Of a stretch of 64,000 bases of DNA, positions 4,381 to 21,119 are shown in pieces. The stretch's first letter is position 1. The number at the start of each line of letters is the position of its first letter. This DNA is from Bacteroidota bacterium. Its GTDB lineage: Bacteria > Bacteroidota > Bacteroidia > UKL13-3. The stretch covers positions 48,164 to 112,163 of the forward strand of contig JAIXSO010000053.1 of NCBI GenBank assembly GCA_027484685.1. The letters are read 5' to 3'. Below the pieces are notes generated by a model. It had not been told where the DNA came from, did not search any database, and worked only from the letters and a program-made list of their open reading frames with translations. The position numbers and the translations under genes were made by a program.

Positions 4381-5619
4381 TTATTCCAAATCAGTATTCA
4401 GTTTGTAACGGCAAATACGGTTATTGCCTTTATCGGCTACATAAATCGTTTTACGGTTATAACAAATTCCCATTGGATCGTTAAAATTAAACGGACCATC
4501 AAGTGGTTTTCCATCGGCAGCTCTTCCGCCAAACGATACATTTACTTGCTTTCTAATGGTTGAATTTGCTGGAGGATTAACTCCTTCAAAACCTTGATTG
4601 GTAAATACATAAACCGAATCTGTTTCACTATCCACTACAAAAAAGTAGTTGGTAGCATCAGGAGCTATAAAACAATCTTCGGGTTTTTTAAACTTAAATG
4701 GCTCATACATAAAGCTATTGGCTTTCGAAATATCAAAATTCAATAAACTAGAAGTTTCGGTGTATTGTGTTCCTAAATCTGGATCGTCAACTACAGTAAT
4801 CAATAATGTTTTGTACTCTAAATTATTGGTTTGATTATTAGAGGTAATCATAAAGTTTTTAGAAGTACTCATACCTTGCAAACGCTGCGGAGGAGCCGAA
4901 AATGTGGCAATTCCTGAAATATCAATGGCTGTTTTTAAACCTGATTCTGTAGCATTTAATCCAATGGCATAACCAATATTGGTTCCTGTTGGGCTAAACA
5001 ATAAAACTGCATTATCTGGCCTAACAAATGTATTTTGCTGGTTACGAGGACCTTTTCTGGTAACATATAAAGTATTATCGCTTAAACAAGCTATACCCGT
5101 AAATTCAACTTCTTGGTCAGGTGCACCTCTAAACTGAGTACTTTGGCGCGATTCATCGCAAAACGGATGAATTAAAGTATCTACAAATTTATAGTTTCCT
5201 TGGCCTGTTCCTTCTAAATGGTAAACACAAGTTACAGTAGCATTTACAGTTGCATCAAACACTTTTCCAATTACATAAGTGTGTAATCTTCTGTCTTGTG
5301 TTACTTCTTTTGCGCCTGGTATGGCAATGGTATATGCCAATGTACCTTTTTGATCAAGCACATTTAGACCTTTGTCATCAACCACATATATCATCTCATC
5401 AAAACCCACATACACATCTACCGGATTTTGAAAACCTTTAAAAAACGGAAATACTGGTACATAACTAACTGCTTTTGGCACCAAGTTAGGATCAATTTGT
5501 CCTTGTTGTAATACTTCATCAACGGTATCATTTTGTTTGCTACCAAACACCGAACACGATGATATTAAACTAATTACAGCTACAGTTAAAAAAATATATT
5601 TTACAAAAGTTGATTTCAT
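4381..5619 (-). CDS. NHL-repeat lipoprotein
   Basis: 412 aa. Signal peptide plus lipobox (ISLISSCSV). The C-terminal NHL-like repeat (GICYNRKTIYVADKGNNRICRY) suggests a beta-propeller. There is a 7-nt gap to the upstream OM-protein gene, so they likely form an operon. Confidence 0.5.
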   Translation of the reverse strand: MKSTFVKYIFLTVAVISLISSCSVFGSKQNDTVDEVLQQGQIDPNLVPKAVSYVPVFPFFKGFQNPVDVYVGFDEMIYVVDDKGLNVLDQKGTLAYTIAIPGAKEVTQDRRLHTYVIGKVFDATVNATVTCVYHLEGTGQGNYKFVDTLIHPFCDESRQSTQFRGAPDQEVEFTGIACLSDNTLYVTRKGPRNQQNTFVRPDNAVLLFSPTGTNIGYAIGLNATESGLKTAIDISGIATFSAPPQRLQGMSTSKNFMITSNNQTNNLEYKTLLITVVDDPDLGTQYTETSSLLNFDISKANSFMYEPFKFKKPEDCFIAPDATNYFFVVDSETDSVYVFTNQGFEGVNPPANSTIRKQVNVSFGGRAADGKPLDGPFNFNDPMGICYNRKTIYVADKGNNRICRYKLNTDLE

Positions 5620-5626
5620 TTTTTAA

Positions 5627-6652
5627 TTATTTAATGGTAAATAATAAACCAATTCTATGAATATTGCCAATGCGCGATTTGCTCACCAAACCATAATCAA
5701 TACCAAAATTACCAAAACTACGAGGCAATTTAATTCCAAAACCTAAACTTGGAAAATTATTAGCTTCATCTAAGCCAAACTCCCAACCGCTGCGGCCATA
5801 AAGAATTTTTTTCCAGCTATACTCCACTCCTAGTCCTACTGTTTCGTTATTATCGGTTGGATGGTTTAATTGCGCAGCAGTAGTTAGTACGTGGGTTTTA
5901 TTGCTAATTGGGTCAATGGCAAAACCTAACCTAAATACAGCAGGTGCCGAAACTGGTGTAAAATCGTTTTTTTGAGTTTCGCCATTTAATTTTAAAATAG
6001 TAACACTTCCTGTTGGGGCCACATTCACGCCAAAATTAGAAAACGTAACTCCAAAACGTGAATTTTTGATACCAATATTATAAGTTAAACCTAAATCGAA
6101 AAGTACATTATTTACTGATACGTTTGCTATAACCTCTTGCGCAAATTTGGCTTGTAAACCAAAACTAAAACTATTGGTTAAAATTTTTGCAAAACTAACA
6201 CCTATAGAAGTGCTTCCCATCAAGACATTTCTGCCTGTTCCGTTTGGTTCAAACTCTGTTGTTTCTTTGGTATCGCCAAAGCCTAAACTCATTACATTTA
6301 CGCCCACATAACTTAATTTGCCAGCTTTAAAAGCCACCGCACCGTAATTTACTTGGCTATTGCCAAACCAACGTGTGTGCGAAAACTGCGCAGTTACTTT
6401 ACCTGTATCAATTCCGGTAATTCCCGCAGGATTCCAATACAAAGCGGCAGCATCGTTGGTTAACCCAACCACAGCACCACCCATTGCAGCCGAACGTGCA
6501 TCAGGAACAATTTTTAAAAACTGCATACCACTTCCTCCTGTGCGGCTATTACCAAAGGTTGGCAATATTTGTGCTTGCGCAAAAGAGGCAGTAATTAATA
6601 AAATATATAATAATTTGAATTTAAACTTCATTGTTTTATAAAAGCCGTGCAA
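5627..6652 (-). CDS. outer-membrane beta-barrel protein, PorV/PorQ (UPF0164-like) family, T9SS-associated
   Basis: 341 aa with a signal peptide. N-terminal motif FLKIVPDARSAAMGGAVVGLTNDAAALYWNPAGIT is characteristic of the PorV/PorQ family. Alternating hydrophobic beta-strands and a C-terminal aromatic residue. Confidence 0.5.
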   Translation of the reverse strand: MHGFYKTMKFKFKLLYILLITASFAQAQILPTFGNSRTGGSGMQFLKIVPDARSAAMGGAVVGLTNDAAALYWNPAGITGIDTGKVTAQFSHTRWFGNSQVNYGAVAFKAGKLSYVGVNVMSLGFGDTKETTEFEPNGTGRNVLMGSTSIGVSFAKILTNSFSFGLQAKFAQEVIANVSVNNVLFDLGLTYNIGIKNSRFGVTFSNFGVNVAPTGSVTILKLNGETQKNDFTPVSAPAVFRLGFAIDPISNKTHVLTTAAQLNHPTDNNETVGLGVEYSWKKILYGRSGWEFGLDEANNFPSLGFGIKLPRSFGNFGIDYGLVSKSRIGNIHRIGLLFTIK

Positions 6653-7000
6653 AATAAAACATTATTTTATATTCTAAAGGTTAATTGTTTGTGAAGTTAA
6701 TTTAGTTGTTAGTTGTTAGTTGATGGTTGTCGGTTGATAGACAATAGACGATAGACCATGGTTTTGGGTTTAAATCAATAGTGGTAATTATTTTTAATTG
6801 CAAAATATTGGCAATAAAATGCTTGAAAAGAAGATAGCTAAATTTAAAATATTTCATTTCAATATTTACTGAGTTCAATTGCTATTGGACTTCTCTTTCA
6901 CTAATATTTTTTTGCAAACTGATAAAATAAAGCAAATAGTCATTCAGTAGGAATCCCCTTAATATGGCAACCAAGTTAGCTAATGGATAAGTAATTTCTT

Positions 7001-7125
7001 TTTTTCTGCTTTCTTTTTCCTTAGATGAAAAAGAAACAAAAAATCAAGGCAAAAAAATGCTTCCACGCACGTGGCCTGGGCTGGCCCGCTTTTTTGCCAG
7101 CCCCACTCACATCGTTAATGGAATA
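7001..7125. repeat. ~125-bp GC-rich intergenic repeat, copy A (inverted partner at 19741-19867)
   Basis: The reverse complement of 7001-7125 aligns to 19741-19867 at roughly 88% identity. It contains a GC-rich hairpin, gggctggc-N10-gccagccc. Confidence 0.8.
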
Positions 7126-7357: not shown

Positions 7358-8005
7358 ATGAAAACCTTAAAGCAAACTTGCCAAATTATAAATACCAAAA
7401 AAATCAAAATTTTTGGGGTTTTGTTTATGGTGCTGTTTTTACAAAGCTGTATGAAAGAAGAATACGACAAGGTAGAACATAAAACCAATTATTATTACTT
7501 AACAGCAGCGCAGCTTAACCAAACACCTTATTTTACCAACCCAACCTTTGATACCATAAGTTTTGCTAGCGATAAAGGCGACACCTTAACCTTTGTAAAA
7601 ACCCAAACCGATGATACTACTTGGTATTGCGAAAATGGCTCTGGAAACCCTAATACAGGCTACGATAAAGATTGTTACCAAACCATACATAATACTTATG
7701 CTACTGTTAAAGGAAATGGGAGTTTTGATGTGAAGCATATAAAAGAAAACAACTATCTAAGTACATATTTACAAATAAAATTCTCTAACCTGATTTTTTA
7801 TTACGATGCTATAGCAATCGATGACGTTACATTTGGAAGATTTATAGGCGATTTTGTGAAAAACAATCAAACTTTTAGAAATACAATTTACACTTACAAT
7901 AATTATACTGATAGTTTAATAGCAATAAGTTATATCAATAAAGACTTTGGCTTGTTTTCAATAAATGATAAATCAACTAATACCCAATATTTAATACTTA
8001 AATAA
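7358..8005 (+). CDS. family-A variable lipoprotein, copy 1
   Basis: 215 aa. Lipobox LQSCM. The first ~120 aa and last ~10 aa are near-identical to the two downstream paralogs, at ~93% nt identity. The middle is divergent. Confidence 0.6.
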   Translation: MKTLKQTCQIINTKKIKIFGVLFMVLFLQSCMKEEYDKVEHKTNYYYLTAAQLNQTPYFTNPTFDTISFASDKGDTLTFVKTQTDDTTWYCENGSGNPNTGYDKDCYQTIHNTYATVKGNGSFDVKHIKENNYLSTYLQIKFSNLIFYYDAIAIDDVTFGRFIGDFVKNNQTFRNTIYTYNNYTDSLIAISYINKDFGLFSINDKSTNTQYLILK

Positions 8006-8029
8006 TTTTAGAAACCCAAAACAGCAAAC

Positions 8030-8677
8030 ATGAAAACCTTACAGCAAACTTGCCAAATTATAAACACCAAAAACTGCAAACTTTTTGGGGTTTTGTTTAT
8101 GGTGCTGTTTATACAAAGCTGTATGAAAGAAGAATACGACAAGTTAGAACATAAAACCAATTATTATTACTTAACAACAGCGCAACTTAACCAAACACCT
8201 TATTTTACCAACCCAACCTTTGATACCATAAGTTTTGCTAGCGATAAAGGCGACACCTTAACCTTTGTAAAAACCAAAACAGATACAAGTTGGTACTGCG
8301 AAAAAGGCTCAGGAAACCCAAACACCGGTTACGATAAAGATTGTTACCAAACCATACATAATACTTACATAACCACAAAAGGAAATGGGAGTTTTGATGT
8401 GAACTACAATTACTATACTTCTCAATATGGATTATTTAGAATTGAATTATTTTTTGGCAATGTACACTTTGTTATTTGTGAGTGTGTAATTAACGACAAA
8501 ACATATAAGAATTATGTTGGTGACTTTAAAATTGGTAACAATACTTTTTCTGATTCATTTTTTGAATTTCATAATTTAGTTGATGATTCAATAGCCAAAG
8601 GATATTTCAACAAGAATTATGGTCTATTTTACTTAAATGACAAATCAACCAATACTGAATATTTAATTCTTAAATAA
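8030..8677 (+). CDS. family-A variable lipoprotein, copy 2
   Basis: 215 aa. Same conserved N-terminal and C-terminal modules as copy 1, with an unrelated middle segment. Confidence 0.6.
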   Translation: MKTLQQTCQIINTKNCKLFGVLFMVLFIQSCMKEEYDKLEHKTNYYYLTTAQLNQTPYFTNPTFDTISFASDKGDTLTFVKTKTDTSWYCEKGSGNPNTGYDKDCYQTIHNTYITTKGNGSFDVNYNYYTSQYGLFRIELFFGNVHFVICECVINDKTYKNYVGDFKIGNNTFSDSFFEFHNLVDDSIAKGYFNKNYGLFYLNDKSTNTEYLILK

Positions 8678-8693
8678 TTTAAAAACAGCAAAC

Positions 8694-9353
8694 ATGAAAA
8701 CCTTACAGCAAACTTGCCAAATTATAAATACCAAAAACATCAAACTTTTTGGGGCATTGATTATGATACTGTTTATACAAAGCTGTATTAAAGAAGAATA
8801 CGATAAGGTAGAACATAAAACCAATTATTATTACTTAACGGCAGCGCAGCTTAACCAAACACCTTATTTTACCAACCCAACCTTTAATACCATAAGTTTT
8901 GCAAGCGATAAAGGCGACACCTTAACCTTTGTAAAAACCCAAACCGATACTACTTGGTATTGCGAAAATGGCTCAGGAAACCCAAATACTGGTTACGATA
9001 AAGATTGTTACCAAACCATACACAATACTTATGCTACTGTTAAAGGTAATGGGAGTTTTGAGGTGAAGCATGGTAATGTTAATTCCAATTTGTTCTTTTA
9101 TCGAACCACAGATATGATTAATTTTCAATTTAATGAATTAAATTTTTTTATTCGGGACTATAGAATTGGAACTAAAAATGGAACAATTTTTTATGATACA
9201 ATATTAGTAGGTAATAACACATTTAGCAATTCAATAAAAATATTTCATAATTTGAATGATTCTGTTTCAGGGGAAGCACTTATAAATAAAGATTTTGGCG
9301 TGTTTTCAATAAATGATAAGCTAAATGATACTGAATATTTTATTCTCAAATAA
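8694..9353 (+). CDS. family-A variable lipoprotein, copy 3
   Basis: 219 aa. Same architecture. Tandem with 16-24 nt spacers that repeat 'aacagcaaacATG'. Confidence 0.6.
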   Translation: MKTLQQTCQIINTKNIKLFGALIMILFIQSCIKEEYDKVEHKTNYYYLTAAQLNQTPYFTNPTFNTISFASDKGDTLTFVKTQTDTTWYCENGSGNPNTGYDKDCYQTIHNTYATVKGNGSFEVKHGNVNSNLFFYRTTDMINFQFNELNFFIRDYRIGTKNGTIFYDTILVGNNTFSNSIKIFHNLNDSVSGEALINKDFGVFSINDKLNDTEYFILK

Positions 9354-12359: not shown

Positions 12360-13595
12360 ATGAAAAAAATATTTACCATTATTGCTGCTTTAGCAGTATT
12401 TACTAATGTAAGCGCACAAAGGTACAAAGACAAAATTTTTACCGAAGTAGCCATGGATAGTGTAACTTATGGTTCTGCAAAAAACTATGCTGGCTCTACA
12501 CAAGACCTGAAAATGAATATTTTTCAACCAGTAGGCGATACTGCAACTAACAGACCTTTATTAATATTGGCTCATGGAGGTTCATTTGTTGGTGGAAATA
12601 GGTATTTACCAGATGTAACTTATTTATGTACCGAATTTGCAAAACGTGGCTATGTGTGTGTTTCAATTCAATACCGTTTAGGTGTTAATCCAATCGAAAT
12701 TGCTCTAGACCAAAGCCAAGCAGGACCTCAATTTGCTAACGCTTTGTGGCGTGGAACTTTAGATGGAAGAGCGGCTGTGAGGTATTTAAGAGCTAACGCA
12801 AATACTTATAAAGTTAGTTTAGGTCAAGTATATTTAGGTGGAGTTTCGGCAGGTGGTGTACTTGGATTACATGAAGCATTTTTAGATACAGAAGCCGAAA
12901 TTGGAACAGCAAACCCAAGAATGGACACTGCTGCTATTGGTGGTGGCATTGAAGGTTTAAGTGGCACACCAGGACAAAGCTGGAGAGTAAAAGGAGTTAT
13001 TAATTTATGTGGCGCTTTAGGCGATGTAAATTGGATGAGTAATAACAAAAATGTTTCTATATTTAGTGTGCATGGAACAAACGATGAAACGGTTCCATAT
13101 AAAACTAATTTCTTTTCTTATGCAGGTTTGCAAATTGGCCGTTTAAGTGGAAGTTTTGTGGTAGATTCAATGGCAAAAGTATTGGGTATGAAATCGGTAC
13201 TTTATACTTTTCAAGGTGCACCTCATGTGCCGTTTAGCCCAGGAGTAGGAACTACAGCAAGTAGTACTGCGTATATGGATACTACCGAAGGTTTGTTAAG
13301 AGAATTTTTATTTGATGATATTAAAACAGCAGGTGTAGGTGTAAATAATGTATTGGCTAATAGCGATGTAAAAGTTTATCCAAATCCAGCTAAAGAAAAT
13401 GTTTCGATTGAAACCAGTAAAGGTAACAACAATGTAATTACCATTTTAGACTTAAGTGGAAAAACCATTGAAACTGTAAATACTAGCAAAACAATTACTG
13501 TTTTAAATACTACTAACTTAACTTCAGGAATTTATTTTATACAAATAACCAATGAGTTTGGTAGCATTACTAAAAAATTAGTAATTGAAAACTAA
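12360..13595 (+). CDS. secreted alpha/beta-hydrolase esterase with T9SS C-terminal sorting domain
   Basis: 411 aa. Signal peptide, HGGSF oxyanion motif and GGVSAGG nucleophile elbow. The C-terminal ~80 aa (KVYPNPAKENVSIE...GIYFIQITNEFG) is a Por_Secre_tail. Confidence 0.8.
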   Translation: MKKIFTIIAALAVFTNVSAQRYKDKIFTEVAMDSVTYGSAKNYAGSTQDLKMNIFQPVGDTATNRPLLILAHGGSFVGGNRYLPDVTYLCTEFAKRGYVCVSIQYRLGVNPIEIALDQSQAGPQFANALWRGTLDGRAAVRYLRANANTYKVSLGQVYLGGVSAGGVLGLHEAFLDTEAEIGTANPRMDTAAIGGGIEGLSGTPGQSWRVKGVINLCGALGDVNWMSNNKNVSIFSVHGTNDETVPYKTNFFSYAGLQIGRLSGSFVVDSMAKVLGMKSVLYTFQGAPHVPFSPGVGTTASSTAYMDTTEGLLREFLFDDIKTAGVGVNNVLANSDVKVYPNPAKENVSIETSKGNNNVITILDLSGKTIETVNTSKTITVLNTTNLTSGIYFIQITNEFGSITKKLVIEN

Positions 13596-13620
13596 ATTTT
13601 AAAAAACTAAACCCTTTAAA

Positions 13621-13660
13621 AAGCCGCTAATCACTAAAATTAGCGGCTTTCTTTATTTTT
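13621..13660 (+). terminator. intrinsic terminator after the esterase gene
   Basis: aagccgctaat-cactaaa-attagcggctt followed by ctttattttt. Confidence 0.6.
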
Positions 13661-13726
13661 GGGTTTAAAATATTGGGGTGGCAAGGTTGTTGTAAATAGG
13701 GTTTTTAACTTAAACCACATACATTT

Positions 13727-14269
13727 ATGAAAACCAAACACTTTATTTTATTCCTAGTTATTGCAGCTTGTTTTTCGGCCTGTACTCCTAAAATTATTTT
13801 TAACGAAGCACTTAGAAATAACCTTGACCTCAAGCAAATTAAACCTGAAAAACTCCAATTTTATATTGATAGAAGTATTGATATGCGCAGAGAAATTGCC
13901 TCTAACAGCACTAAAATTTCAGGAGGAAAAATTGAATATTATAAAGGTAAAAATGTGCAGATTTTAAATATAAAAGAACTTACACCTGGTATTTGTTTGC
14001 GCAGCACCGATTCTACCTTAGATATTGCATTTGAAAGCAATAACGAATTGTATTTAACTTTTAAAAAAATAAAATCGCCTGATTTAGATGTAAAAATTTA
14101 CATGCTTGATGGTTTTAAAAATGAAGAAGGAAACTTTTTTGTAAATTATGGAGGTGTAAGTTACCAAATAGACGAAAAAGCAGCCGAAGCCAAAATTTTG
14201 ATAAAACGCAAAATTGCCAATAAAGAAAATGTGAACGTGAAGAAAATTAAAGGCAGAAAGGTGAGTTAG
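13727..14269 (+). CDS. hypothetical lipoprotein
   Basis: 180 aa. Signal peptide with lipobox FSACT. Confidence 0.45.
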   Translation: MKTKHFILFLVIAACFSACTPKIIFNEALRNNLDLKQIKPEKLQFYIDRSIDMRREIASNSTKISGGKIEYYKGKNVQILNIKELTPGICLRSTDSTLDIAFESNNELYLTFKKIKSPDLDVKIYMLDGFKNEEGNFFVNYGGVSYQIDEKAAEAKILIKRKIANKENVNVKKIKGRKVS

Positions 14270-14285
14270 GATTGTTGAATTGTTA

Positions 14286-14300
14286 TCACGCAAGGCGTGA
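14286..14300. repeat. 15-bp palindrome TCACGCAAGGCGTGA, copy 2
   Basis: Located 17 nt after the stop of the 13727-14269 CDS. Confidence 0.8.
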
Positions 14301-14319
14301 TTGAATTGTTATATTGATA

Positions 14320-14552
14320 AATTGTTAAATTGTCAATTGCTAATTGTCAATTATCCATTGCTAATTATCCATTGTCAACTATCCATTGTCAATTATCCAT
14401 TGTCAATTATCCATTGTCAATTATCCATTGTCAACTATCCATTGTCAATTATTCCATTGCTAATTATCCATTGTCAATTATCCATTGCTAATTATCCATT
14501 GTCAATTATCCATTGCTAATTATCCATTGCTAATTATCCATTGTCAATTGCC
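14320..14552. repeat. 14-bp tandem repeat array (CCATTGTCAATTAT / CCATTGCTAATTAT, ~16 units)
   Basis: Read directly from the sequence. There are two unit variants (TC/CT swap) plus occasional AACTAT. The array explains the artefactual ORF 14301-14519. It lies between convergent genes. Confidence 0.9.
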
Positions 14553-14565
14553 TATTAACAAAAAC

Positions 14566-14601
14566 GCCCGAAATCAAAAGTGATTTCGGGCGTTTTATTT
14601 T
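14566..14601. terminator. bidirectional intrinsic terminator (gcvT / lipoprotein gene)
   Basis: A 12-bp stem cgcccgaaatca/tgatttcgggcg with A-run on the 5' side and T-run on the 3' side. Confidence 0.75.
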
Positions 14602-14611
14602 AAATTATATA

Positions 14612-15688
14612 CTACAAAAACGGAATTTTTACCACTTTAGCTTTAATCATTTTTTCGCGAATTTCGATGAAAATTTCTGAATCAACTTTGCTATGCGAAG
14701 CTGCTACATAACCCATACCAATAGCTTTGTTTAAACTTGGCGATTGAGTTCCTGAAGTAACTTCACCAATGGTATTTCCTTCTGCATCTTTAATCATGTA
14801 ATGTTGACGAGGAATACCACGGTCAATTAATTCGAAACCAACTAATTTTTTAGTAGCACCATTTTCTTTAATGGCTTTGTGATGTTCGCTCATTATAAAT
14901 GGTTTGGTAAATTTGGTAATCCAACCTAAACCTGCTTCAATTGGGCTAGTTTCATCGTTGATATCGTTACCATACAAACAAAAACCTTTTTCTAAACGTA
15001 AAGTATCGCGCGCACCTAAACCAACTGGAATAATATCAAACTCTTTTCCTGCTTCAAAAATGGCATCCCACATTTTTTTAGCATCTTTATTCCAAACATA
15101 AATTTCAAATCCACCTGCACCGGTATAACCTGTGTTTGAAATAATTACATCATCGCAACCAGCCATGGTACCACCGCAAAAAGTGTAATATTCCATAGCG
15201 CTTAAGTTTACATCAGTTAATTTTTGTAAAGCCTTAATAGCATTAGGACCTTGAACTGCAAATAAACTCATGTCATCACTCATGTTTTTCATTTCTACAC
15301 CAAAAGTATTGTGTTGGCTAATCCAATTCCAATCTTTTTCAATGTTTGATGCATTTACTACTAAGTAATACTCATCGGCACTCCAACGGTATACCAATAA
15401 ATCATCTACAATTCCACCTTTATCGTTTGGTAAGCAGCTGTATTGAACTTTACCATCGGTTAATTTTGAAGCATCGTTGCTGGTAACTAATTGAATTAAT
15501 TCAAGCGCTTTTTCGCCTTTTAGCATAAACTCGCCCATGTGGCTAACATCAAACACACCTACCGAATTGCGAACAGCTAAATGTTCTTGAATTAAATTGG
15601 TGTATAATACAGGCATGTTATAACCTGCAAATTCAATCATTTTTGCACCCAAGCCAGCGTGCAAATCATTTAAAGCAACGTATTTCAT
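14612..15688 (-). CDS. gcvT: glycine cleavage system aminomethyltransferase T
   Basis: 358 aa. [29 protein letters not shown] is the canonical GcvT N-terminus. Confidence 0.9.
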
Positions 15689-15810
15689 TTGTTAAAATAT
15701 TATTTTAGTTTTTATAAAGGCGAAAGTAATATAATACTTTAAAAAATTGCCATGTTGTAAATTTGATAAAAATTTGTTGATTAGTTAATTGAGTTGTTTA
15801 AGTTAATAGT

Positions 15811-16884
15811 TTAAAATTTTCGTGCGTAAATATTTGTGCTAGTTAATATGTAAAGTGTATTATCAATGACCCAATTACACTTTATTTCTTCATTTTCTGC
15901 AAAAGGTGTTGTAATACTTTCAACCTTTCCACTTTCAATATTTAATAAAGTTAGCTCGTTAAACAAATATTTATTATCATTACTATAGCTTAAAATCAGC
16001 ATGTACTTTTCATTAAAGTATGGAAGAACATTACCTAATAACTTATATTTATATACAACTGCAAAATCTGAAAAATTAGTTGTTTTGTATATTTCACGTG
16101 TGATGAAGTTATGAAAGTAAGCATAATTGTTAAAAGTCCCTATAAAAGTATAATCTTTTGAAATACTTTGATTGGTTTGAACCAGCATTGACTTGGTATT
16201 TATTGTGGCAAATTCATTTTCAAAATATTTCCAAAACACAATATTATCTCTTAATCTAAAAGTTGTATTGAAACCAGTTTTAGAAAAAATTGAGATGGTA
16301 GTATCTATTTTTTTGTTATTATGTCTATAATTAAATAAATAATTATAGCCTAATGCATTATTATAATTGTAGTAGGCGAAATAATCATATCCATAGCCAA
16401 TAAAGTTATATAAATTAGTTTCATTTGTATCTTTTATAAAGTAACTACGCGCAAAAAAATTGGTAATTATTTCTGTTCCATATAAATTATTTTCAATAAT
16501 TACTTGACTGCTTTTACCTGGTCCAGCTTGTGGGTTAATAATATAATAAAAAGTGTTTTTGAAATTAGGAAAGCCAGCAACTGATTGAAACTTAATAGCA
16601 GAATTTCCCGAGTTTAATATAAAATTGGGTGAGATTGTAAGATTGAAATTAGAGTCAATAAAAAAAACTTTATTATAACTTAACAACGCCATGCTTTTGT
16701 TTGGTTGGTAAGATACATCTGTTATATTGTTACCAACTTTATATGGAACTTTGTTCATCTTTGTCCATTTATTATAATAAACAATTGAATCAATTTCTTG
16801 GTTGTTGCTAACTGTGTTATTGTTTTCTTTTTTACAGGCAAAAAAGGAAAGTATTAACAAGGCAAAAAATATTCTTTTAATCAT
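15811..16884 (-). CDS. family-B lipoprotein, copy 1
   Basis: 357 aa. Lipobox SFFACKKENNNTVSN. The C-terminus ends ..NIYARKF. Paralogous to the two upstream genes. Confidence 0.55.
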   Translation of the reverse strand: MIKRIFFALLILSFFACKKENNNTVSNNQEIDSIVYYNKWTKMNKVPYKVGNNITDVSYQPNKSMALLSYNKVFFIDSNFNLTISPNFILNSGNSAIKFQSVAGFPNFKNTFYYIINPQAGPGKSSQVIIENNLYGTEIITNFFARSYFIKDTNETNLYNFIGYGYDYFAYYNYNNALGYNYLFNYRHNNKKIDTTISIFSKTGFNTTFRLRDNIVFWKYFENEFATINTKSMLVQTNQSISKDYTFIGTFNNYAYFHNFITREIYKTTNFSDFAVVYKYKLLGNVLPYFNEKYMLILSYSNDNKYLFNELTLLNIESGKVESITTPFAENEEIKCNWVIDNTLYILTSTNIYARKF

Positions 16885-16890
16885 GTCCTT

Positions 16891-17970
16891 TTAAAATTTT
16901 CGTGCGTAAATATTATCTTCAGTTAAAACATACAAAACATTGTCAATAATCCAATTACATCTTACCTTTTCGTAACGTTCTAATGGCATTGATAAAATTT
17001 GAGAGGATTTATTTTCTAGATTCAATAGTATAAATTCTGTTTCTTGGTCATTATAAGTGCTTAGGTATTTCACAATTAATAAATATTTTTCGTTAAAATA
17101 AGGTACTGGATTATTAATTAAATCATTCTTATAAACCATTTCAAAATCCGTAAAATTATTTGACTTATATATGCCTTGATTAAAAAATTTATTATTATAA
17201 AAGTAAGCACTATTATTAAAAGTACCTATAAAACTAAAGTTTTTTGGAACGCTTTGATTTTCTTGAACAGACATTGTTCGAATATTTATTGTAGTAAAAA
17301 CATTATTGTAATATTTCCAGAAAACCACTTTGTCTCCAAGTCTAAATGTAGTATTATAGCCTTCACCAGTAAAAGAAATTGTAGTATCTATTCTTTTTTG
17401 GTTGTTAAAATAGCGTAATTGATAGTTATCTAAATTAGGTAACGCTTTGTAAATGTAATATGCATAATAGTCTTCTCCATAACCCATATAATTGTAGGAA
17501 TTATTCTGGTTCGTGTCTTTTACGAAAAAATTTCTTGAATAAATTTGTGTATTAACTTCAGAACCATAAATAGTATTTTCAATAATTAGCTGATTGGACT
17601 TACCAGAAGACGAAATGGCATCAGTTAAATAAAAAAATCTATCTTTTATATTTGGAAAATCATTATAAGTTTGGAATTTCATGTAAAAAATACCAGAATT
17701 ACTAAAAAACCTTGGTGATAGATTTACTTTATAATTGGAATCTATAAAATACACCCTAGAATTAGTTAGCAAAGCAATGGCTTTATTTGGAAGATAAGAT
17801 ATGTCTGTAACGTAATCTGTCAGTCTTAATGGAACTTTGTTCATCTTTGTCCATTTATTATAATAAACAATTGAATCAATTTCTTGAGCGTTGCTAACTG
17901 TGTTATTGTTCTCTTTTTTACAAGCAAAAAAGGAAAGCATTAACAAGGAAAAAAATATTCTTTTATTCAT
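16891..17970 (-). CDS. family-B lipoprotein, copy 2
   Basis: 359 aa. The same N-terminal 45 aa are nearly identical to copy 1. Conserved motifs include VFWKY, IGTFNN, PYFNEKY and CNW. Confidence 0.55.
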   Translation of the reverse strand: MNKRIFFSLLMLSFFACKKENNNTVSNAQEIDSIVYYNKWTKMNKVPLRLTDYVTDISYLPNKAIALLTNSRVYFIDSNYKVNLSPRFFSNSGIFYMKFQTYNDFPNIKDRFFYLTDAISSSGKSNQLIIENTIYGSEVNTQIYSRNFFVKDTNQNNSYNYMGYGEDYYAYYIYKALPNLDNYQLRYFNNQKRIDTTISFTGEGYNTTFRLGDKVVFWKYYNNVFTTINIRTMSVQENQSVPKNFSFIGTFNNSAYFYNNKFFNQGIYKSNNFTDFEMVYKNDLINNPVPYFNEKYLLIVKYLSTYNDQETEFILLNLENKSSQILSMPLERYEKVRCNWIIDNVLYVLTEDNIYARKF

Positions 17971-17985
17971 AACTATATTTTAAGT

Positions 17986-19065
17986 TTAATAAAACTTTCT
18001 ACCATAAACATTATTACTCGTTAGCAAATATAAATTATCACCAATTACCCAATAGCATTGGGCTTCTCCATCCCAAGAATCCCAAGTAAAAGTAACCACT
18101 TTTAAGGTTTCAATATTAAGTAAACAAATGTTATGTGTTCTAATTGTATTTTGTTCAAACTGTTGAGAATACATGATGTACTTTCCTTTGTGATAAGCCC
18201 AAACTTTATCCATAATTAAATCTGTATATATTTTTTTGAAGTCTTTTAAATTGGAGCTTGAGTAAATTGATCCATCTGCTTTTTTCTCAAAATAAGCGGT
18301 GTTATTATAAATACCAATCAATTTGAAATCGGCTGAAAAAGTTTGGTTTGAATCAAGTTGGTTTGTAGCAAAATCAAAATACCTAAAATTATTTCCTGTT
18401 TCATTTAAAAAGCAAAGCTTGTTATTGAATTCAAATGCTTTTGTATAAAGCTGATTGATATTTAATTTTATTGATTTGGTAAGTATATTATTGCTAAAAT
18501 AATTAATAGAATACCCCATTGCTTTTGTTTTATCAATACCAAACCAAAACACCTTATAATCATCATTTTCCAACATGATATCGTAAATAATATTTGATGA
18601 GGTGTCATCAATAAAATAATTTTTATTGAAATACTCAAAACGTAAACTTTTTTCTGATGTTAAGTTATAAGAAACAAAAAATTGACTAAAAGATTTATCA
18701 TTGTTTCTAAATGTATTTAAATACAAAAAATAAGCATATAAAGAATCTGTAGTTTTAGACTCTGCAAAGCGTGATTGAATATTTGTTCCTGATTGTAAAC
18801 TTCTATATTGAAAAGGTTTACTTAATACTTTATTTTCATCAATAAAGTAAACATCATTATCACCTAATATGCATAAAATACTGTTATTATTAATTAATCG
18901 AATATCTTTAATGTACAAATAATCAATGAACTGATTGTCCATAAATTTAGTCCATTTATAATTCGTCAAAGTGGTATCCAGTTGACTTGTATTAACTGTA
19001 GTATTTTCTTCTTTTTTACAGGCAAAAAATGATACAAGCAGAAATAGCACAATAATTTTATTCAT
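17986..19065 (-). CDS. family-B lipoprotein, copy 3 (more divergent)
   Basis: 359 aa. Lipobox FFACKKEEN. Shares motifs YKWTKF, YFID, CYWVI and LYLLTSNNVYGRKF. Confidence 0.5.
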   Translation of the reverse strand: MNKIIVLFLLVSFFACKKEENTTVNTSQLDTTLTNYKWTKFMDNQFIDYLYIKDIRLINNNSILCILGDNDVYFIDENKVLSKPFQYRSLQSGTNIQSRFAESKTTDSLYAYFLYLNTFRNNDKSFSQFFVSYNLTSEKSLRFEYFNKNYFIDDTSSNIIYDIMLENDDYKVFWFGIDKTKAMGYSINYFSNNILTKSIKLNINQLYTKAFEFNNKLCFLNETGNNFRYFDFATNQLDSNQTFSADFKLIGIYNNTAYFEKKADGSIYSSSNLKDFKKIYTDLIMDKVWAYHKGKYIMYSQQFEQNTIRTHNICLLNIETLKVVTFTWDSWDGEAQCYWVIGDNLYLLTSNNVYGRKFY

Positions 19066-19193
19066 GAATTATAATTTTACAATTGCAATATAAAATTTAT
19101 TTATAAACTTGCAATTAACCTTGATTAACGAAATAAAATTTACTCAATTTTTAAGTATTCCTATCTTCGTATTTAACTCAAACCCCAAAAAAC

Positions 19194-19610
19194 ATGAAAA
19201 CAATTTTACGAAACGTATTAGCCGTTATAGTTGGCATACTAGTTGGTTCAGCAGTAAACATGGTGCTTATTAACTTAAGTAGTTTTATAATTCCACCTCC
19301 ACTTGGCGTAGATGTAACCACTGAAGAAGGTTTAAAAGCTGGCATACATTTATTTGAACCCAAACATTTTATCATGCCATTTTTAGCGCATGCATTGGGG
19401 ACCTTAGTTGGTGCGTTGTTAACAGTGTTAATAGCTGCCAATAATAAAATGAGGCTCGCTTTAACCATTAGTATGGTATTTTTTATTAGTGGAGCCATAA
19501 TGATTAATTTAGTTCCTGGTCCTATTTGGTTTGCAATAGTTGATTTGGTTTTTGCTTATATACCAATGGGTTTGTTAGCTGCAAAAATTGCTACTAAAAA
19601 AGAAATTTAA
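19194..19610 (+). CDS. small integral membrane protein (hypothetical)
   Basis: 138 aa with 3-4 predicted TM helices. Confidence 0.45.
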   Translation: MKTILRNVLAVIVGILVGSAVNMVLINLSSFIIPPPLGVDVTTEEGLKAGIHLFEPKHFIMPFLAHALGTLVGALLTVLIAANNKMRLALTISMVFFISGAIMINLVPGPIWFAIVDLVFAYIPMGLLAAKIATKKEI

Positions 19611-19740
19611 AGTAATTTAAAATAATATAAAACAAAAAAGACTTTTAGGAAATATTTAAATACAAATAGAAACTATAAATTCTAAAAAAAGTCTTTAGAT
19701 ATTCTAAAAAAACTGTAGATACTAAATTATAAAAATTTAT

Positions 19741-19867
19741 ATTCCATTAGCAACGTGCGTTGGGTCGGCAAAAAAGCGGGCCAGCCCAGGCCTGTGGGCA
19801 GAAGCATTTTTTTGCCTTGATTTTTTGTTTCTTTTTCATCTAAGGAAAAAGAAAGAAAGAAAAAGTG
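19741..19867. repeat. ~125-bp GC-rich intergenic repeat, copy B (inverted relative to 7001-7125)
   Basis: See copy A. It lies in the convergent gap between the 19194 CDS and hflX. Confidence 0.8.
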
Positions 19868-19964
19868 CTTTTGTTAGTTGACAAAAAAGACTCCTAGAAA
19901 AAAAGATAAACCTTGAAATCTATGAGTCTTTTTGTTTTAATAAATTATAAATCTTTAGCTACAA

Positions 19965-21119
19965 CTAGCTAATCGATTCAACAATTTTTTTCCTTAATTC
20001 ATCAATATTTACTTTTTTGGTAGCCGATATAAAAATTACTTGTCCATTTTCTTTTGCCATCCAAGTATTTTTAAGTTTCTCTATGTAAGGCAAATGCTCA
20101 GTTTCCTCGCCAAAAGGATCATCTGGCTCCAAAGGTTCTTTCAGTTGATCTATTTTATTAAAAATAAGTAATTGTTTTTTATTGCTAGCACCAATTTCTA
20201 ATAAAGTACTGTTTACCAAGTTTAATTGGTCTTCAAAATTTTCGTGGCTAATATCTACCACATGTAGCAACAAATCAGCCTCGCGCACTTCATCTAAGGT
20301 TGATTTAAAACTTTCTACCAATTGATGTGGTAATTTACGAATAAACCCAACGGTATCGCTCAATAAAAAAGGTACGTTATCAAAAACTACTTTGCGCACC
20401 GTACTATCCAAAGTTGCAAACAATTTATTTTCAACCAAAACTTCGCTTTTGCTTAATAAATTCATGATGGTTGATTTGCCCACATTGGTATAACCCACCA
20501 AAGCCACACGTTTTTTCTCATCTCGATTTTGCCTGCGTGTAGCCGATTGTTTATCAATATGGCTTAAGCGTTCTTTTAGTTTGCTTATTTCATCGCGCAA
20601 TAAACGTCTATCGGTTTCAATTTCGGTTTCACCCGGACCACGCATACCAATTCCACCTTTTTGCTTGGTTAAGTGGGTCCACATACGCGTTAAACGAGGC
20701 AATAAATATTGGGCTTGCGCCAATTCTACTTGATACTTAGCCTGAGCTGTACTGGCTCTATTAGCAAAAATATCCAATATCAAATTGCTTCTATCTAAAA
20801 TTTTTATTTTTAGCTCATTTTGGATATTACGCAATTGCGATGGACTCAACTCATCGTCAAAAATCACTATATCAATTTCACGGACAGTAATGTATTCTTT
20901 TATTTCTTCTAACTTTCCTTCGCCCACATAAGTGCGCGAGCTAGGATGAGGCAAGCGTTGTAAAAACTGCTTTTCTACAGCAGCACCCGCGGTTTGCGCC
21001 AAAAAAGCCAATTCGTCAATATACTCTTGCGCCTTTTCTATTTTTAAATTTGGAGTAACCACTCCTACCAAAACCGCACGTTCTTGCGGTTTAGCGGTAT
21101 CATATAATTTTTTTGCCAT
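19965..21119 (-). CDS. hflX: GTPase HflX
   Basis: 384 aa. N-terminal HflX domain followed by G-domain motifs GYTNVGKST, DTVGF and NKID. Confidence 0.9.
   Translation of the reverse strand: MAKKLYDTAKPQERAVLVGVVTPNLKIEKAQEYIDELAFLAQTAGAAVEKQFLQRLPHPSSRTYVGEGKLEEIKEYITVREIDIVIFDDELSPSQLRNIQNELKIKILDRSNLILDIFANRASTAQAKYQVELAQAQYLLPRLTRMWTHLTKQKGGIGMRGPGETEIETDRRLLRDEISKLKERLSHIDKQSATRRQNRDEKKRVALVGYTNVGKSTIMNLLSKSEVLVENKLFATLDSTVRKVVFDNVPFLLSDTVGFIRKLPHQLVESFKSTLDEVREADLLLHVVDISHENFEDQLNLVNSTLLEIGASNKKQLLIFNKIDQLKEPLEPDDPFGEETEHLPYIEKLKNTWMAKENGQVIFISATKKVNIDELRKKIVESIS

Follow-up and report, generated by a model that had tools for sequence, protein, structure and literature searches.

A tandem array of predicted seven-bladed β-propeller lipoproteins in a variable slot upstream of gcvT in a freshwater Bacteroidia genus

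The window, which is the whole 64,000-nt stretch of DNA analyzed here, contains an array of three related lipoprotein genes in an interval of changing content upstream of gcvT. It is slightly more likely than not that the products are binding proteins of the outer membrane, probably exposed at the cell surface and built on a β-propeller, and that the genes occupy a replacement-type flexible slot in which 5′ modules recombine.

Organization of the array

The array consists of three intact open reading frames on the minus strand, encoding 357, 359, and 359 amino acids, exactly where a preliminary description of this DNA had placed a tandem set of 357–359-residue lipoprotein genes. Copy 3 (17986–19065; 359 residues) is the first gene, copy 2 (16891–17970; 359 residues) starts 15 nt past the copy 3 stop codon, and copy 1 (15811–16884; 357 residues) starts 6 nt past that of copy 2. 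Homology extends over the full length of the proteins. Copies 1 and 2 share 56% identity and copy 3 is ~30% identical to either (30% to copy 1), in keeping with its earlier portrayal as more diverged. Matches of the copies to the family HMM have E-values of 1e-139 to 1e-155, which are partly self-matches given that the underlying alignment contained all three copies. The signal peptide of every copy closes with the lipobox SFFA-C, which on direct reading fits the PROSITE PS51257 pattern. The motifs previously listed as shared by the set, FFACKKENNNTVSN, VFWKY, IGTFNN, PYFNEKY, and NIYARKF, are exact in copies 1 and 2, but copy 3 has only loose counterparts (FFACKKEENTTVN, IGIYNN, CYWVIGD, and NVYGRKFY).

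The genes are co-oriented and tightly packed, and their spacing and conservation suggest an operon, probably transcribed from a single promoter upstream of copy 3. The divergent intergenic region there (19066–19193) contains a conserved block, AAATTTTATATTGCAAT (19082–19098, minus strand), whose conservation and spacing make it a candidate promoter. In a 5′ alignment of the window with the related loci L008, L014, L016, L002, and L006, this block precedes the first array gene despite differing upstream neighbors. No comparable 5′ region stands before copies 2 and 1, where the gaps are just 15 and 6 nt. A sigma-70 promoter scan was dominated by a 14-nt tandem repeat and is unsuited to Bacteroidota promoters. 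A terminator scan of 15689–19065 found no terminator-like hairpin on the minus strand. An inversion-type shufflon was rejected on direct reading, as the array comprises three complete co-oriented genes, each with its own start codon and signal peptide.

Predicted fold

The preliminary description saw no recognizable domain in these proteins and proposed profile searches and structure prediction as checks. For sequence searches its view stands. The three proteins have no match in Pfam, NCBIfam, PADLOC, or PDB sequences; no Pfam-A propeller family, PQQ/BamB included, is found for any copy even at E ≤ 10; PDB searches with 3- and 19-sequence profiles are empty; and a PHROGs scan returns one insignificant match (E 0.025). 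The named propeller families WD40, Kelch, NHL, YVTN, PQQ/BamB, FG-GAP, DUF4374/XusB, TolB-like, and DUF5128 were rejected, with no profile match in Pfam-A, NCBIfam, or the PDB profiles.

The fold itself, however, is recognizable. AlphaFold models of copies 1 and 3 (pTM 0.77 and 0.76) are generic seven-bladed β-propellers, each predicted to stand behind a lipidated, flexible N-terminal tether; the AF2 model of copy 3 is all-beta with a pLDDT of 79.4. A seven-bladed propeller was defined by about 28 β-strands, arranged as seven four-stranded sheets around an axis, together with structural matches to known propellers, and both modeled copies fall within this definition. The structural matches are generic (TM about 0.45–0.5), the best bacterial ones from Foldseek being E. 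coli YncE and the virginiamycin B lyase type (E about 1e-7, TM 0.47–0.56). YncE and virginiamycin B lyase are soluble proteins with no lipid anchor. They share 8–13% identity with the array family, in which the sequence motifs of their own families are not detected.

Lipidation and predicted location

Lipoproteins were recognized by a basic n-region, a hydrophobic core, and a lipobox ending in Cys within residues 15–35, read as a pattern. All 19 full-length family members have K/R among their first residues, a hydrophobic run, and the sequence [FILV][FILVA]A-C with the Cys at 16–17 (Cys16 in copy 3, Cys17 in copies 1 and 2). They are read as bacterial lipoproteins that signal peptidase II would process.

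The optimal lipoprotein export signal (LES) of Bacteroidota is C-X-K-(D/E)2-X, directly after the lipidated Cys, and in a SiaC reporter K-D alone is insufficient for surface exposure (PMC5080379). The Lys at +3 and the Glu at +4 never vary among the 19 full-length members. The motif CKKEE, which matches the LES, occurs in 13 of the 19, copy 3 included; CKKEN, with one acidic residue only after the Lys, occurs in 6, copies 1 and 2 included. Given this single acidic residue and the behavior of the SiaC reporter, copies 1 and 2 may face the periplasm. The three lipoproteins would sit on the outer membrane, most likely at the cell surface, and we infer that they act as non-enzymatic binding modules.

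Type IX secretion, which had been raised as an export route, was rejected. A Pfam scan finds no C-terminal sorting domain (Por_Secre_tail or similar) in the three proteins, and their C-terminus is the conserved last propeller strand, NIYARKF. As a positive control, a true CTD protein in the same window (12360–13595) was detected at E 1e-15.

A periplasmic location would accord with a structural or envelope-assembly role like that of BamB, with the tandem copies as ordinary redundant paralogues, but such a role is fairly unlikely. BamB is likewise an outer-membrane lipoprotein with a β-propeller of similar size. All copies of the array carry a lipobox, and copies 1 and 2 have one acidic residue where the minimal export signal calls for two. 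In relatives the genes are spaced 2–14 nt apart, and their neighbors encode small lipoproteins and 217-aa proteins whose last residues are an OMP-like GYQF. However, BamB is a periplasm-facing, widely conserved single-copy protein with eight blades and PQQ-like repeats, whereas the array family has seven modeled blades, no PQQ-type match, a lineage-restricted distribution, and a variable copy number. Occurrence in a handful of MAGs, with changing copy number and lineage, is unlike core envelope machinery, and the invariant K and E after the Cys, with the full K-E-E in most members, also speak against this role.

The slot upstream of gcvT

In all complete loci of the genus the fixed downstream anchor is gcvT, the gene of the glycine-cleavage aminomethyltransferase (14612–15688, minus strand; PF01571 on relatives' orthologues), whose product is 98–99% identical to those of L008 and L014–16. 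The synteny comparison that had been suggested earlier gives a constant gcvT preceded by variable content. The intergenic region between copy 1 and gcvT (15689–15810, minus strand) is kept in relatives whichever cassette precedes it, with blastn homology to L014–L016 reaching up to 15807–15809. The upstream anchor in the window, L001, L011, and L014–16 is an HflX-type GTPase gene (19965–21119, minus strand; 99% amino acid identity), with Pfam GTP-bdg_N/M and MMR_HSR1 on the L001 orthologue. Divergent to the array lies the gene of a 138-aa hydrophobic protein (19194–19610, plus strand), the usual upstream neighbor in the HflX-type slot. This protein has no match in Pfam, NCBIfam, or PADLOC; it is 84–90% identical in L001, L008, and L014–16, with a dN/dS of 0.13–0.18. 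Upstream neighbors of the gcvT-linked loci are of four kinds: HflX/138-aa protein, GroEL, YitT, and M20 peptidase.

Related species hold one to three propeller genes per slot, drawn from three old lineages of the family, alpha, beta, and gamma, and some slots add pairs in which a gene for a 144-aa lipoprotein accompanies one for a 217-aa barrel-like protein. The window array runs gamma, alpha2, alpha1 (copies 3, 2, and 1). Copies 1 and 2 form a 2.2-kb indel (about 15808–17984): L015 and L016 lack this segment, and L014 has a different cassette in its place. The interval is interpreted as a replacement-type flexible slot because the gcvT and HflX flanks are 98–99% identical in amino acids, the content between them differs, L008 holds a mosaic gene, and the L010 array is closer to that of the window than its flanks are; the interpretation draws on short metagenomic contigs. 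Conserved gcvT synteny may merely reflect shared descent, as all gcvT-context loci come from one genus. A scan of metagenome contigs gave one more locus only, with the architecture of L002.

In a distant clade the homologues P0049, P0051, and P0053 are single-copy and lie 30–59 nt upstream of an APC-family amino-acid permease gene. P0049 and P0053 are also downstream of a PF02574 S-methyltransferase gene; the P0051 contig (2.4 kb) ends short of that region. Flanking genes of this clade are 85–93% identical (permease 86–93%), whereas the lipoproteins between them are 22–32% identical, which repeats the pattern of the gcvT slot.

These neighborhoods could mean that the propellers serve amino-acid and one-carbon metabolism as capture or escort proteins. 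The small substrate bound at the outer membrane would be glycine or a methylated amine or sulfonium compound, and it would be fed to the neighboring pathway, represented by gcvT in the genus and by the permease and a homocysteine S-methyltransferase in the distant clade. In every locus reaching gcvT a family gene lies upstream on the same strand, despite the four kinds of upstream neighbor, and directly adjoins gcvT except where small cassette pairs intervene. The stretch between copy 1 and gcvT is free of terminator-like hairpins, the distant homologues lie near the permease and, for two of them, the methyltransferase, and BtuG and XusB are precedents of propeller lipoproteins that capture small molecules. 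Metabolic capture is nevertheless unlikely. The kept intergenic region and the intervening 144/217 pairs suggest that gcvT has its own promoter, and the occupants change in copy number and lineage beside a nearly invariant gcvT. The divergence of the distant occupant next to a well-conserved permease is unlike that of a co-evolving metabolic partner; moreover, the gcvT-linked loci represent a single genus, and no TonB-dependent transporter lies alongside. The window gave no hits in Rfam and tRNA scans, and gcvT is not preceded by a glycine riboswitch.

Transport partners of the SusD or outer-membrane-protein kind, considered in the preliminary description, did not emerge: no SusC/SusD or TonB-dependent gene was found in or beside the HflX–gcvT slot of the window, and no TonB-dependent or SusC-like gene in the relatives' slots. 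The arrangement typical of BtuG/XusB-type ligand-capture lipoproteins, a gene beside that of its partner TonB-dependent transporter, is therefore absent from the window's slot and flanks and from the relatives' slots. In the distant clade a transporter does occur, but it is not adjacent: it lies about 3 kb downstream, beyond an ECF sigma/FecR pair. The nearest large open reading frame encodes an AcrB-type efflux pump.

The inverted repeat and the family-A array

An inverted repeat (7000–7125 against 19740–19864, 87–92% complementary) lies outside both the present array and the family-A array (7358–9353), and the window contains exactly two occurrences of its 26-nt core, against 0 expected by chance. 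The earlier account of a repeat-bounded block is right about the repeat, but the block that it bounds carries housekeeping genes (purD, Mrp, gcvT, and the like) and is neither a functional nor a mobile unit. Relatives without the repeat arm have a collinear block in the same orientation, and the arm, present twice in the window, is absent from both the relatives' loci and viral contigs. The repeat was accordingly rejected as a mark of inversion or of a mobile element. Family A is unrelated to the family studied here, as had been proposed; the hhalign probability is 10% and the two are alike in the signal peptide only. The relatives' 217/221-aa genes were rejected as homologues of the family-A array.

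Distribution, age, and selection

The family amounts to 15 clusters among 5.77e9 proteins and 10 matches among 1.84e9 representatives, and searching with a wider profile for annotated distant relatives brought up no new or annotated members. All its members belong to one low-GC freshwater Bacteroidia genus or to a few distant relatives, and the family has no functional name in any source and no Pfam or NCBIfam model. P0050 joins an integrase N-terminus to a family fragment on a 2-kb contig without further support, and is treated as a remnant or an assembly chimera.

Each copy has separate orthologues, which means that the duplications predate the species. Orthologues of copy 3 in L001 and L014–L016 (other MAGs) are 88–91% identical in amino acids (dN/dS 0.12–0.19), that of copy 2 is P0003 in L010 (78%, dN/dS 0.30), and that of copy 1 is P0006 (71%). 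The tandem triplication proposed in the preliminary description therefore did not happen in this genome; its copies come from old lineages, each with orthologues elsewhere. All family lineages are under purifying selection, with dN/dS of 0.12–0.30 against orthologues in every lineage and no sliding window above 1. Positive selection in the gamma lineage was rejected, as no window has pN/pS >1. Copy 3 is no more diverged than its surroundings (89% nucleotide identity to relatives against 87–95% for the surrounding region). Given purifying selection on gamma and this ordinary divergence, the "hypervariability" of the locus is one of gene content and lineage replacement, not of fast sequence evolution.

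The same measurements bear on whether the genes are decaying, functionless duplicates with long reading frames kept by AT-rich composition. Their GC content is low (0.255–0.274, below most of the window, which averages 0.313), and searches found no domain or annotation for them. Against decay stand three intact frames with lengths as in homologues, the low dN/dS against orthologues, two models that fold confidently, and termini and about 30 alignment columns that are invariant across the lineages. Decay is extremely improbable.

Recombination among family genes

Copies 1 and 2 have an identical-codon fraction of 0.92 over their first ~45 codons, against about 0.5 elsewhere, and dS is 0.13 in this 5′ module and saturated over the rest of the gene. 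The near-identity described earlier for these N-terminal codons holds, with 142 nt at 94% DNA identity (16743–16884 in copy 1 and 17829–17970 in copy 2, both minus strand). The module covers the signal peptide, lipobox, export-signal-like motif, tether, and first β-strand, and the two 5′ ends have been homogenized by gene conversion. A 40-nt block encoding the lipobox (18993–19032, 16809–16848, and 17895–17934, minus strand) is common to all three copies at 88–95% identity in a repeat search. By 5′ alignment and sliding identity, this block is the crossover point in the L008 mosaic gene, which has three parts: copy 3-like from −54 to +53, copies 1/2-like from +34 to +133, and then alpha3. Array genes of L010 differ from those of the window by dS of 0.38–0.40, and the adjoining gcvT by 1.23. 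This difference between array and flank suggests exchange between lineages, as read from metagenomic contigs of 3–4 kb that are possibly chimeric.

Diverged lipoprotein paralogues that differ in content by strain and species and are exchanged between lineages might also confer immunity to, or act as decoys for, phage or antibacterial toxins that are secreted or delivered by contact. Their build-up as orphan paralogues would parallel that of tandem T6SS immunity genes, and immunity lipoproteins are known to occur in tandem arrays. This origin is very unlikely here. No toxin/effector, T6SS, or defense gene lies nearby; at E ≤ 0.1 PADLOC has no hit for the three proteins, their two conserved neighbors, or the relatives' 144/217-aa proteins; the lone PHROGs match is insignificant; and the distant clade is single-copy in a housekeeping context. 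Known anti-phage defense systems were rejected on the same PADLOC result.

Proposed mechanism and related systems

For surface-exposed binding propellers, the favored reading, the signal peptide of about 16 residues would end in SFFA-C; the Cys would be lipidated, and signal peptidase II would release the protein. The K-K-E-(E/N) after the Cys resembles the export signal C-X-K-(D/E)2, and a disordered tether of about 20 residues would separate this motif from the propeller. The models predict a closed propeller, with the last blade apparently completed by the conserved N-terminal strand YNKWTKM packed against the likewise conserved C-terminus LYxLTxxNIYARKF. New array combinations would arise via homologous recombination, for which the conserved 5′ module (promoter-proximal DNA, signal peptide, lipobox, tether, and first strand) may serve as the homology handle. 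Variability may be favored by phage, predator, or toxin pressure, or by niche-specific ligands.

The closest known systems include BtuG and XusB. BtuG (PDB 3DSM) is a vitamin B12-capturing surface lipoprotein of Bacteroides with a non-enzymatic seven-bladed β-propeller (PMC6143338). The array proteins resemble it as Bacteroidota lipoproteins with a seven-bladed propeller, their fold and exposure being predicted; XusB (DUF4374) is a xenosiderophore-binding surface lipoprotein. For the slot, the parallel is with the replacement flexible genomic islands of aquatic bacteria, exchanged by homologous recombination (Lopez-Perez, Martin-Cuadrado, Rodriguez-Valera 2014; PMC4033161). Both place different genes for a similar kind of product (envelope proteins) at the same position, with signs of recombination through conserved flanks. 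Classical islands, however, are large clusters (O-antigen, flagellar glycosylation, pili), whereas this slot spans 1–4 kb of modular single-gene cassettes. A link to phage pressure has been proposed for such islands and, by extension, may apply to this slot.

Biological meaning

Bacteroidota commonly have tandem paralogous lipoproteins of unknown function, and the array opens no long-standing question and overturns no expectation. One tentative possibility goes further: the family as a whole may be a surface-variation cassette system, in which the portable 5′ module is the recombination handle and propeller bodies are swapped, fused, added, and deleted between paralogues and species. If so, each strain of these abundant freshwater Bacteroidia would carry a different surface repertoire, kept by frequency-dependent pressure from phages, grazers, or toxins. 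Like behavior at a second, unrelated locus in the distant clade would make variation a property of the family and not of the locus.

If the reading of binding propellers in a flexible slot is right, it would add an unannotated, lineage-restricted family to the propeller lipoproteins of Bacteroidota, beside BtuG and XusB. It would also describe a compact (1–4 kb) replacement-type slot in a genome-reduced freshwater lineage, where recombination has left clear footprints in the form of gene conversion, a mosaic gene of three parts, and array genes closer than their flanks. The occurrence of K-E-E and K-E-N within one family would help refine the rules of the lipoprotein export signal, and the slot would be useful for studies of lake microdiversity and phage–host dynamics.

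Three intact lipoprotein genes

The array, here called family B, consists of three tandem lipoprotein genes on the minus strand, as the preliminary description held: copy 1 (15811-16884, 357 aa), copy 2 (16891-17970, 359 aa), and copy 3 (17986-19065, 359 aa). All three are intact ORFs, homologous from end to end and separated by 6 nt (copies 1/2) and 15 nt (copies 2/3). In full-length alignment, copies 1 and 2 share 56% identity and copy 3 shares ~30% with either; the motifs quoted earlier as common to the set are exact in copies 1 and 2, but only approximate in copy 3. The array's GC content, 0.255-0.274, is below that of most of the window (0.313 overall). Each protein begins with a signal peptide, basic and then hydrophobic, that ends in SFFA before the cysteine (Cys16 or Cys17), on direct reading a standard lipobox.

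A ~17-nt block, AAATTTTATATTGCAAT, lies 17-33 nt upstream of the copy 3 start codon. It is kept before the first array gene despite quite different upstream neighbours, is absent before internal genes, and is a candidate for the array's promoter region. From copy 3 to gcvT, a terminator scan found no terminator-like hairpin; a single strong hairpin, 16 bp and bidirectional, is 3′ of gcvT at 14561-14596. The array would probably be transcribed as an operon.

Two repeats were observed nearby. A poly-A tract ~85-90 nt upstream of the copy 3 start (window ~19150-19160) varies in length, with A5 in the window and A8 and A9 in two relatives' loci, L014 and L016; the difference may be neutral or may affect promoter spacing. 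At 14278-14589, a 14-nt unit is repeated in tandem (consensus ATTGTCAATTATCC; ~15 copies by TRF, up to ~22 registers by repeat search) between a convergent 180-aa lipoprotein gene and the gcvT 3′ end, followed by the hairpin. Every unit mimics a TTGACA/GATAAT promoter pair in a sigma-70 scan.

A small family with a predicted propeller fold

A Pfam-A scan of copies 1-3 at E<=10 returns noise only, scans against NCBIfam, PADLOC, and PHROGs give no usable match, and sequence profile searches of the PDB with the family find no match. At this level the earlier statement that there is no recognisable domain is true, but AlphaFold models are beta-propellers. A profile search of 5.77 billion proteins found 15 clusters, all of 350-400 aa or fragments, all without Pfam domains, and all from assemblies, either MAGs or raw metagenomes, that are labelled Bacteroidia or Bacteroidota. 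When 1.84 billion representatives at 50% identity were searched exhaustively with HMMER, 10 proteins matched at E<=0.001. Three of these (P0049, P0051, and P0053) are distant relatives at 18-23% identity, with lipobox, C-terminal signature, and length as in the array proteins. A wider profile search added no new or annotated member.

Two other sequences touch on the family. Directly 3′ of the gene for family protein P0047, locus L020 encodes at 1151-2218 a 355-aa lipoprotein (LLIS followed by CKKE; end VYLATTGGIFKKS) that the family HMM missed; its length, lipobox style, and C-terminal pattern match the family, of which it may be a very diverged paralogue. On a 2-kb contig (L025, ENA ERZ28573520, 1436-1858), a 140-aa ORF joins 43 residues like a XerD-type integrase N-terminus to family residues ~28-85 and then to unrelated sequence. 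The join falls just past the conserved 5′ module, which in copies 1 and 2 comprises signal peptide, lipobox, tether, and first strand, and the ORF is probably a gene remnant or assembly chimera.

Structure prediction, which the preliminary description had named as a next step, gives a seven-bladed beta-propeller for copies 1 and 3. The copy 1 model (15-sequence family alignment) has pLDDT 76.8 and pTM 0.77, and the independent copy 3 model (own alignment) has pLDDT 79.4 and pTM 0.76. Both are all-beta, with ~26-28 strands in seven four-stranded blades, and are disordered up to residue ~30, over the signal peptide and tether. Blade 1 follows a short N-terminal strand near YNKWTKM (residues 36-43), and the C-terminus is the end of the last three strands. 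Conservation across the family is highest in the N-terminal strand and blade 7, with W40, Y353, R355, K356, and F357 invariant, which in the models would fit closure of the propeller by “velcro”. Foldseek matches in the PDB are propellers only (YncE, virginiamycin B lyase, and WD40 proteins; TM 0.45-0.56), and those among viral models are unspecific, generic propellers (WD40, Kelch, and uncharacterised phage proteins). With identities of 4-13%, no match stands out, and none points to a catalytic family. The role of the propeller would be binding rather than catalytic.

Export signal and surface location

The Bacteroidota lipoprotein export signal has been defined by experiment as C-X-K-(D/E)2-X, with K-D alone insufficient in a reporter (PMC5080379). 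After the cysteine, copy 3 and 12 of the 18 other full-length family members carry K-K-E-E, and copies 1 and 2 carry K-K-E-N together with four others. By the reporter rule, copy 3 is therefore likely to be exposed on the surface; for copies 1 and 2 this is uncertain. A structural role in the periplasm is rather unlikely beside the reading as outer-membrane, probably surface-exposed propellers. Export by the type IX secretion system (T9SS), raised earlier as a point to check in homologues, is not borne out: the array proteins have no T9SS C-terminal domain, and a genuine one was detected elsewhere in the window, at 12360-13595.

Old paralogues under purifying selection

A neighbour-joining tree of the family resolves three deep lineages, alpha, beta, and gamma. 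Copy 3 belongs to gamma, with orthologues at 88-91% identity, and copies 1 and 2 group with P0006 (71%) and P0003 (78%), respectively. Since the copies fall in lineages with separate orthologues, they are old paralogues and not, as first described, a triplication in this genome.

For gcvT and HflX, protein identity between the window and L014-L016 is 98-99% and dN/dS 0.01-0.04. Copy-3 orthologues have dS of 0.28-0.36 and dN/dS of 0.12-0.19, similar to several ordinary neighbour genes, and no sliding window within gamma has pN/pS above 1. For copy 2 versus P0003, dN/dS is 0.30, and for copy 1 versus P0007, 0.23. By these values, all three copies are functional and under purifying selection. That they are decaying duplicates is extremely improbable, being rejected by this selection and by the fold models.

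A probable flexible slot beside gcvT

The interval between the HflX side and gcvT, here called the slot, differs in content among relatives. Every locus of the genus that reaches gcvT has the family 5′ of gcvT on the same strand, directly adjoining it except where small cassette pairs intervene, and on the far side of gcvT there is usually a conserved gene for a 180-aa lipoprotein. In the orientation that has HflX forward, the window reads HflX, a 138-aa membrane protein (opposite strand), gamma, alpha2, alpha1, gcvT. L015 and L016 read HflX, a 143+218-aa pair, membrane protein, gamma, gcvT; L014 reads HflX, membrane protein, gamma, a 151+219 pair, gcvT. Three contigs are partial: L001 (HflX, membrane protein, gamma, alpha, contig end), L011 (HflX, a 147+218 pair, alpha, contig end), and L010, which starts in gamma and continues with alpha2 and gcvT. 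Upstream neighbours other than HflX are M20 peptidase and the membrane protein in L008 (alpha3, gcvT), GroEL in L002-5 and L017 (alpha3, 144+217, 148+221, gcvT), and YitT in L006 (beta, alpha3, 146+217, 148+221, gcvT).

Copies 1 and 2 (~2.17 kb) are a clean indel relative to L015/L016, because blastn homology spans gcvT and the intergenic region upstream of it, stops at 15807-15809, and resumes at 17980-17985; L014 holds a different cassette at this position. DNA identity of the slot flanks between the window and L014-L016 is ~87-95% (blastn), and these are therefore related species rather than strains. Replacement-type flexible islands have been described, with a proposed link to phage pressure (PMC4033161), and the array would occupy a small slot of this type. 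That it serves immunity, or acts as an array of decoys, is improbable.

Several features of the relatives' loci were observed alongside. The cassette pairs, a second cassette type, join a gene for a 143-151-aa lipoprotein (lipobox SCC) to a 217-221-aa gene whose product has a GYQF end resembling an outer-membrane beta-barrel terminus; neither protein has a family match. They occur at L002 11085-13298, L006 12156-14374, L014 11239-12355, L015/L016 8350-9439, and L011 895-1996, zero to two per slot, before or after the propeller genes; the window has none. Another slot of variable content separates the 180-aa lipoprotein gene from the T9SS esterase gene: here relatives have 4-5 kb of extra genes (L014 14778-18695; L015 12690-17325) that are missing from the window (equivalent ~13600-13730). 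The L001/L013 MAG (GCA_041730515.1, JBGSBN010000023.1) is labelled “Candidatus Methylacidiphilales bacterium” (Verrucomicrobiota). Gene order on its contig follows that of the window, with HflX at 99% identity, and the contig or its label is probably misassigned.

Signs of recombination at the 5′ module

The near identity of copies 1 and 2 at their 5′ ends, noted earlier, extends over 142 nt at 94% (16743-16884 versus 17829-17970), and beyond it DNA identity is ~60%. Across codons 1-47, 92% of codons are identical and dS is 0.13, whereas in the rest of the gene the same codon is used at ~50% of conserved residues and dS is saturated. This difference points to a recent gene conversion that covered the 5′ module.

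L008 has a single gene, a mosaic in three parts, with 86-97% identity to copy 3 promoter and signal-peptide DNA from -54 to +53, 90-97% to copies 1 and 2 from +34 to +133, and 80-97% to the alpha3 genes of L002 and L006 from +134 on. The first switch lies inside a 40-nt lipobox-coding block that copies 1-3 of the window have all conserved. In L010, dS relative to the window copies is 0.38-0.40 for the gamma fragment and alpha2 gene, against 1.23 for the adjoining gcvT and 2.2 for HflX of the same MAG; these values suggest that array genes have been exchanged between lineages, though the L010 contigs are only 3-4 kb and chimeric assembly is possible. Slot content would be reshuffled by homologous recombination via the conserved 5′ module and conserved flanks.

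A second locus in the distant clade

In the distant clade, P0049 and P0053 are encoded by single-copy genes downstream of ftsZ, between genes for a PF02574 S-methyltransferase and an APC-family amino-acid permease (gap to the permease ~55-60 nt). The P0051 gene is 30 nt upstream of an APC-family permease gene, on a 2.4-kb contig that ends before further upstream genes. Among these loci, identity is 86-93% for the permease, 92% for the methyltransferase, and 85% for FtsZ, but only 22-32% for the lipoprotein. The pattern of a diverged lipoprotein between conserved flanks therefore recurs at a second locus, which suggests that replacement or very fast divergence is a property of the family.

Neighbours of this kind, gcvT at one locus and the permease/methyltransferase pair at the other, would suit a capture function linked to amino-acid or one-carbon metabolism. 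Such a role is unlikely, however: the occupant is variable, gcvT has its own conserved leader, and the loci are of common ancestry.

The inverted repeat and family A

The inverted repeat (7000-7125 versus 19740-19864) is confirmed as ~125 nt, 87-92% complementary, with a GC-rich core, GGCCTGGGCTGGCCCGCTTTTTTGCC, and exactly two copies in the window. The preliminary description took it to bound a block containing the array. The repeat exists, but it marks no unit: the 12.6-kb block carries housekeeping content (purD, a Mrp/ApbC-type ATPase, the T9SS esterase, and gcvT) and matches L014 and L015 in both gene order and orientation; the window segment with the arm near HflX (~19620-19940) has no counterpart in L014-L016; and no further copies occur in relatives' loci or viral contigs. 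Rfam has no match for the element. We interpret the arms as a small repeat element, specific to this genome and present twice.

Family A, at 7358-9353, encodes on the plus strand three lipoproteins of 215-219 aa that share 68-70% identity and have no match in Pfam or NCBIfam. As described earlier, it is unrelated to family B; comparison also rejects homology to the relatives' 217/221-aa genes. After the lipobox (LQS before C) comes M-K-E-E, which fits the export signal C-X-K-(D/E)2 perfectly. Just outside the left arm, 4381-6652 encodes an outer-membrane protein resembling PorV, whose score of 20.7 bits falls short of the Pfam cut-off of 27, and a lipoprotein of 412 aa that contains an NHL repeat. 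Together with the C-terminal domain of the esterase at 12360-13595, these point to a type IX secretion system in the organism.

Relation to known systems

The original observation thus stands, and its interpretation is supported in part. Taken jointly, the best-supported reading is a probable operon of three old paralogues for outer-membrane, probably surface-exposed, binding propeller lipoproteins in a recombining flexible slot. The closest known kinds are BtuG (PMC6143338) and XusB, Bacteroidota propeller surface lipoproteins that share with the array proteins the modelled fold class and predicted lipid anchor. Unlike them, the array proteins fall outside their sequence families and lack the defining TonB-dependent transporter neighbour. 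The propeller lipoprotein family is undescribed, but both its type of protein and its type of locus are already known.
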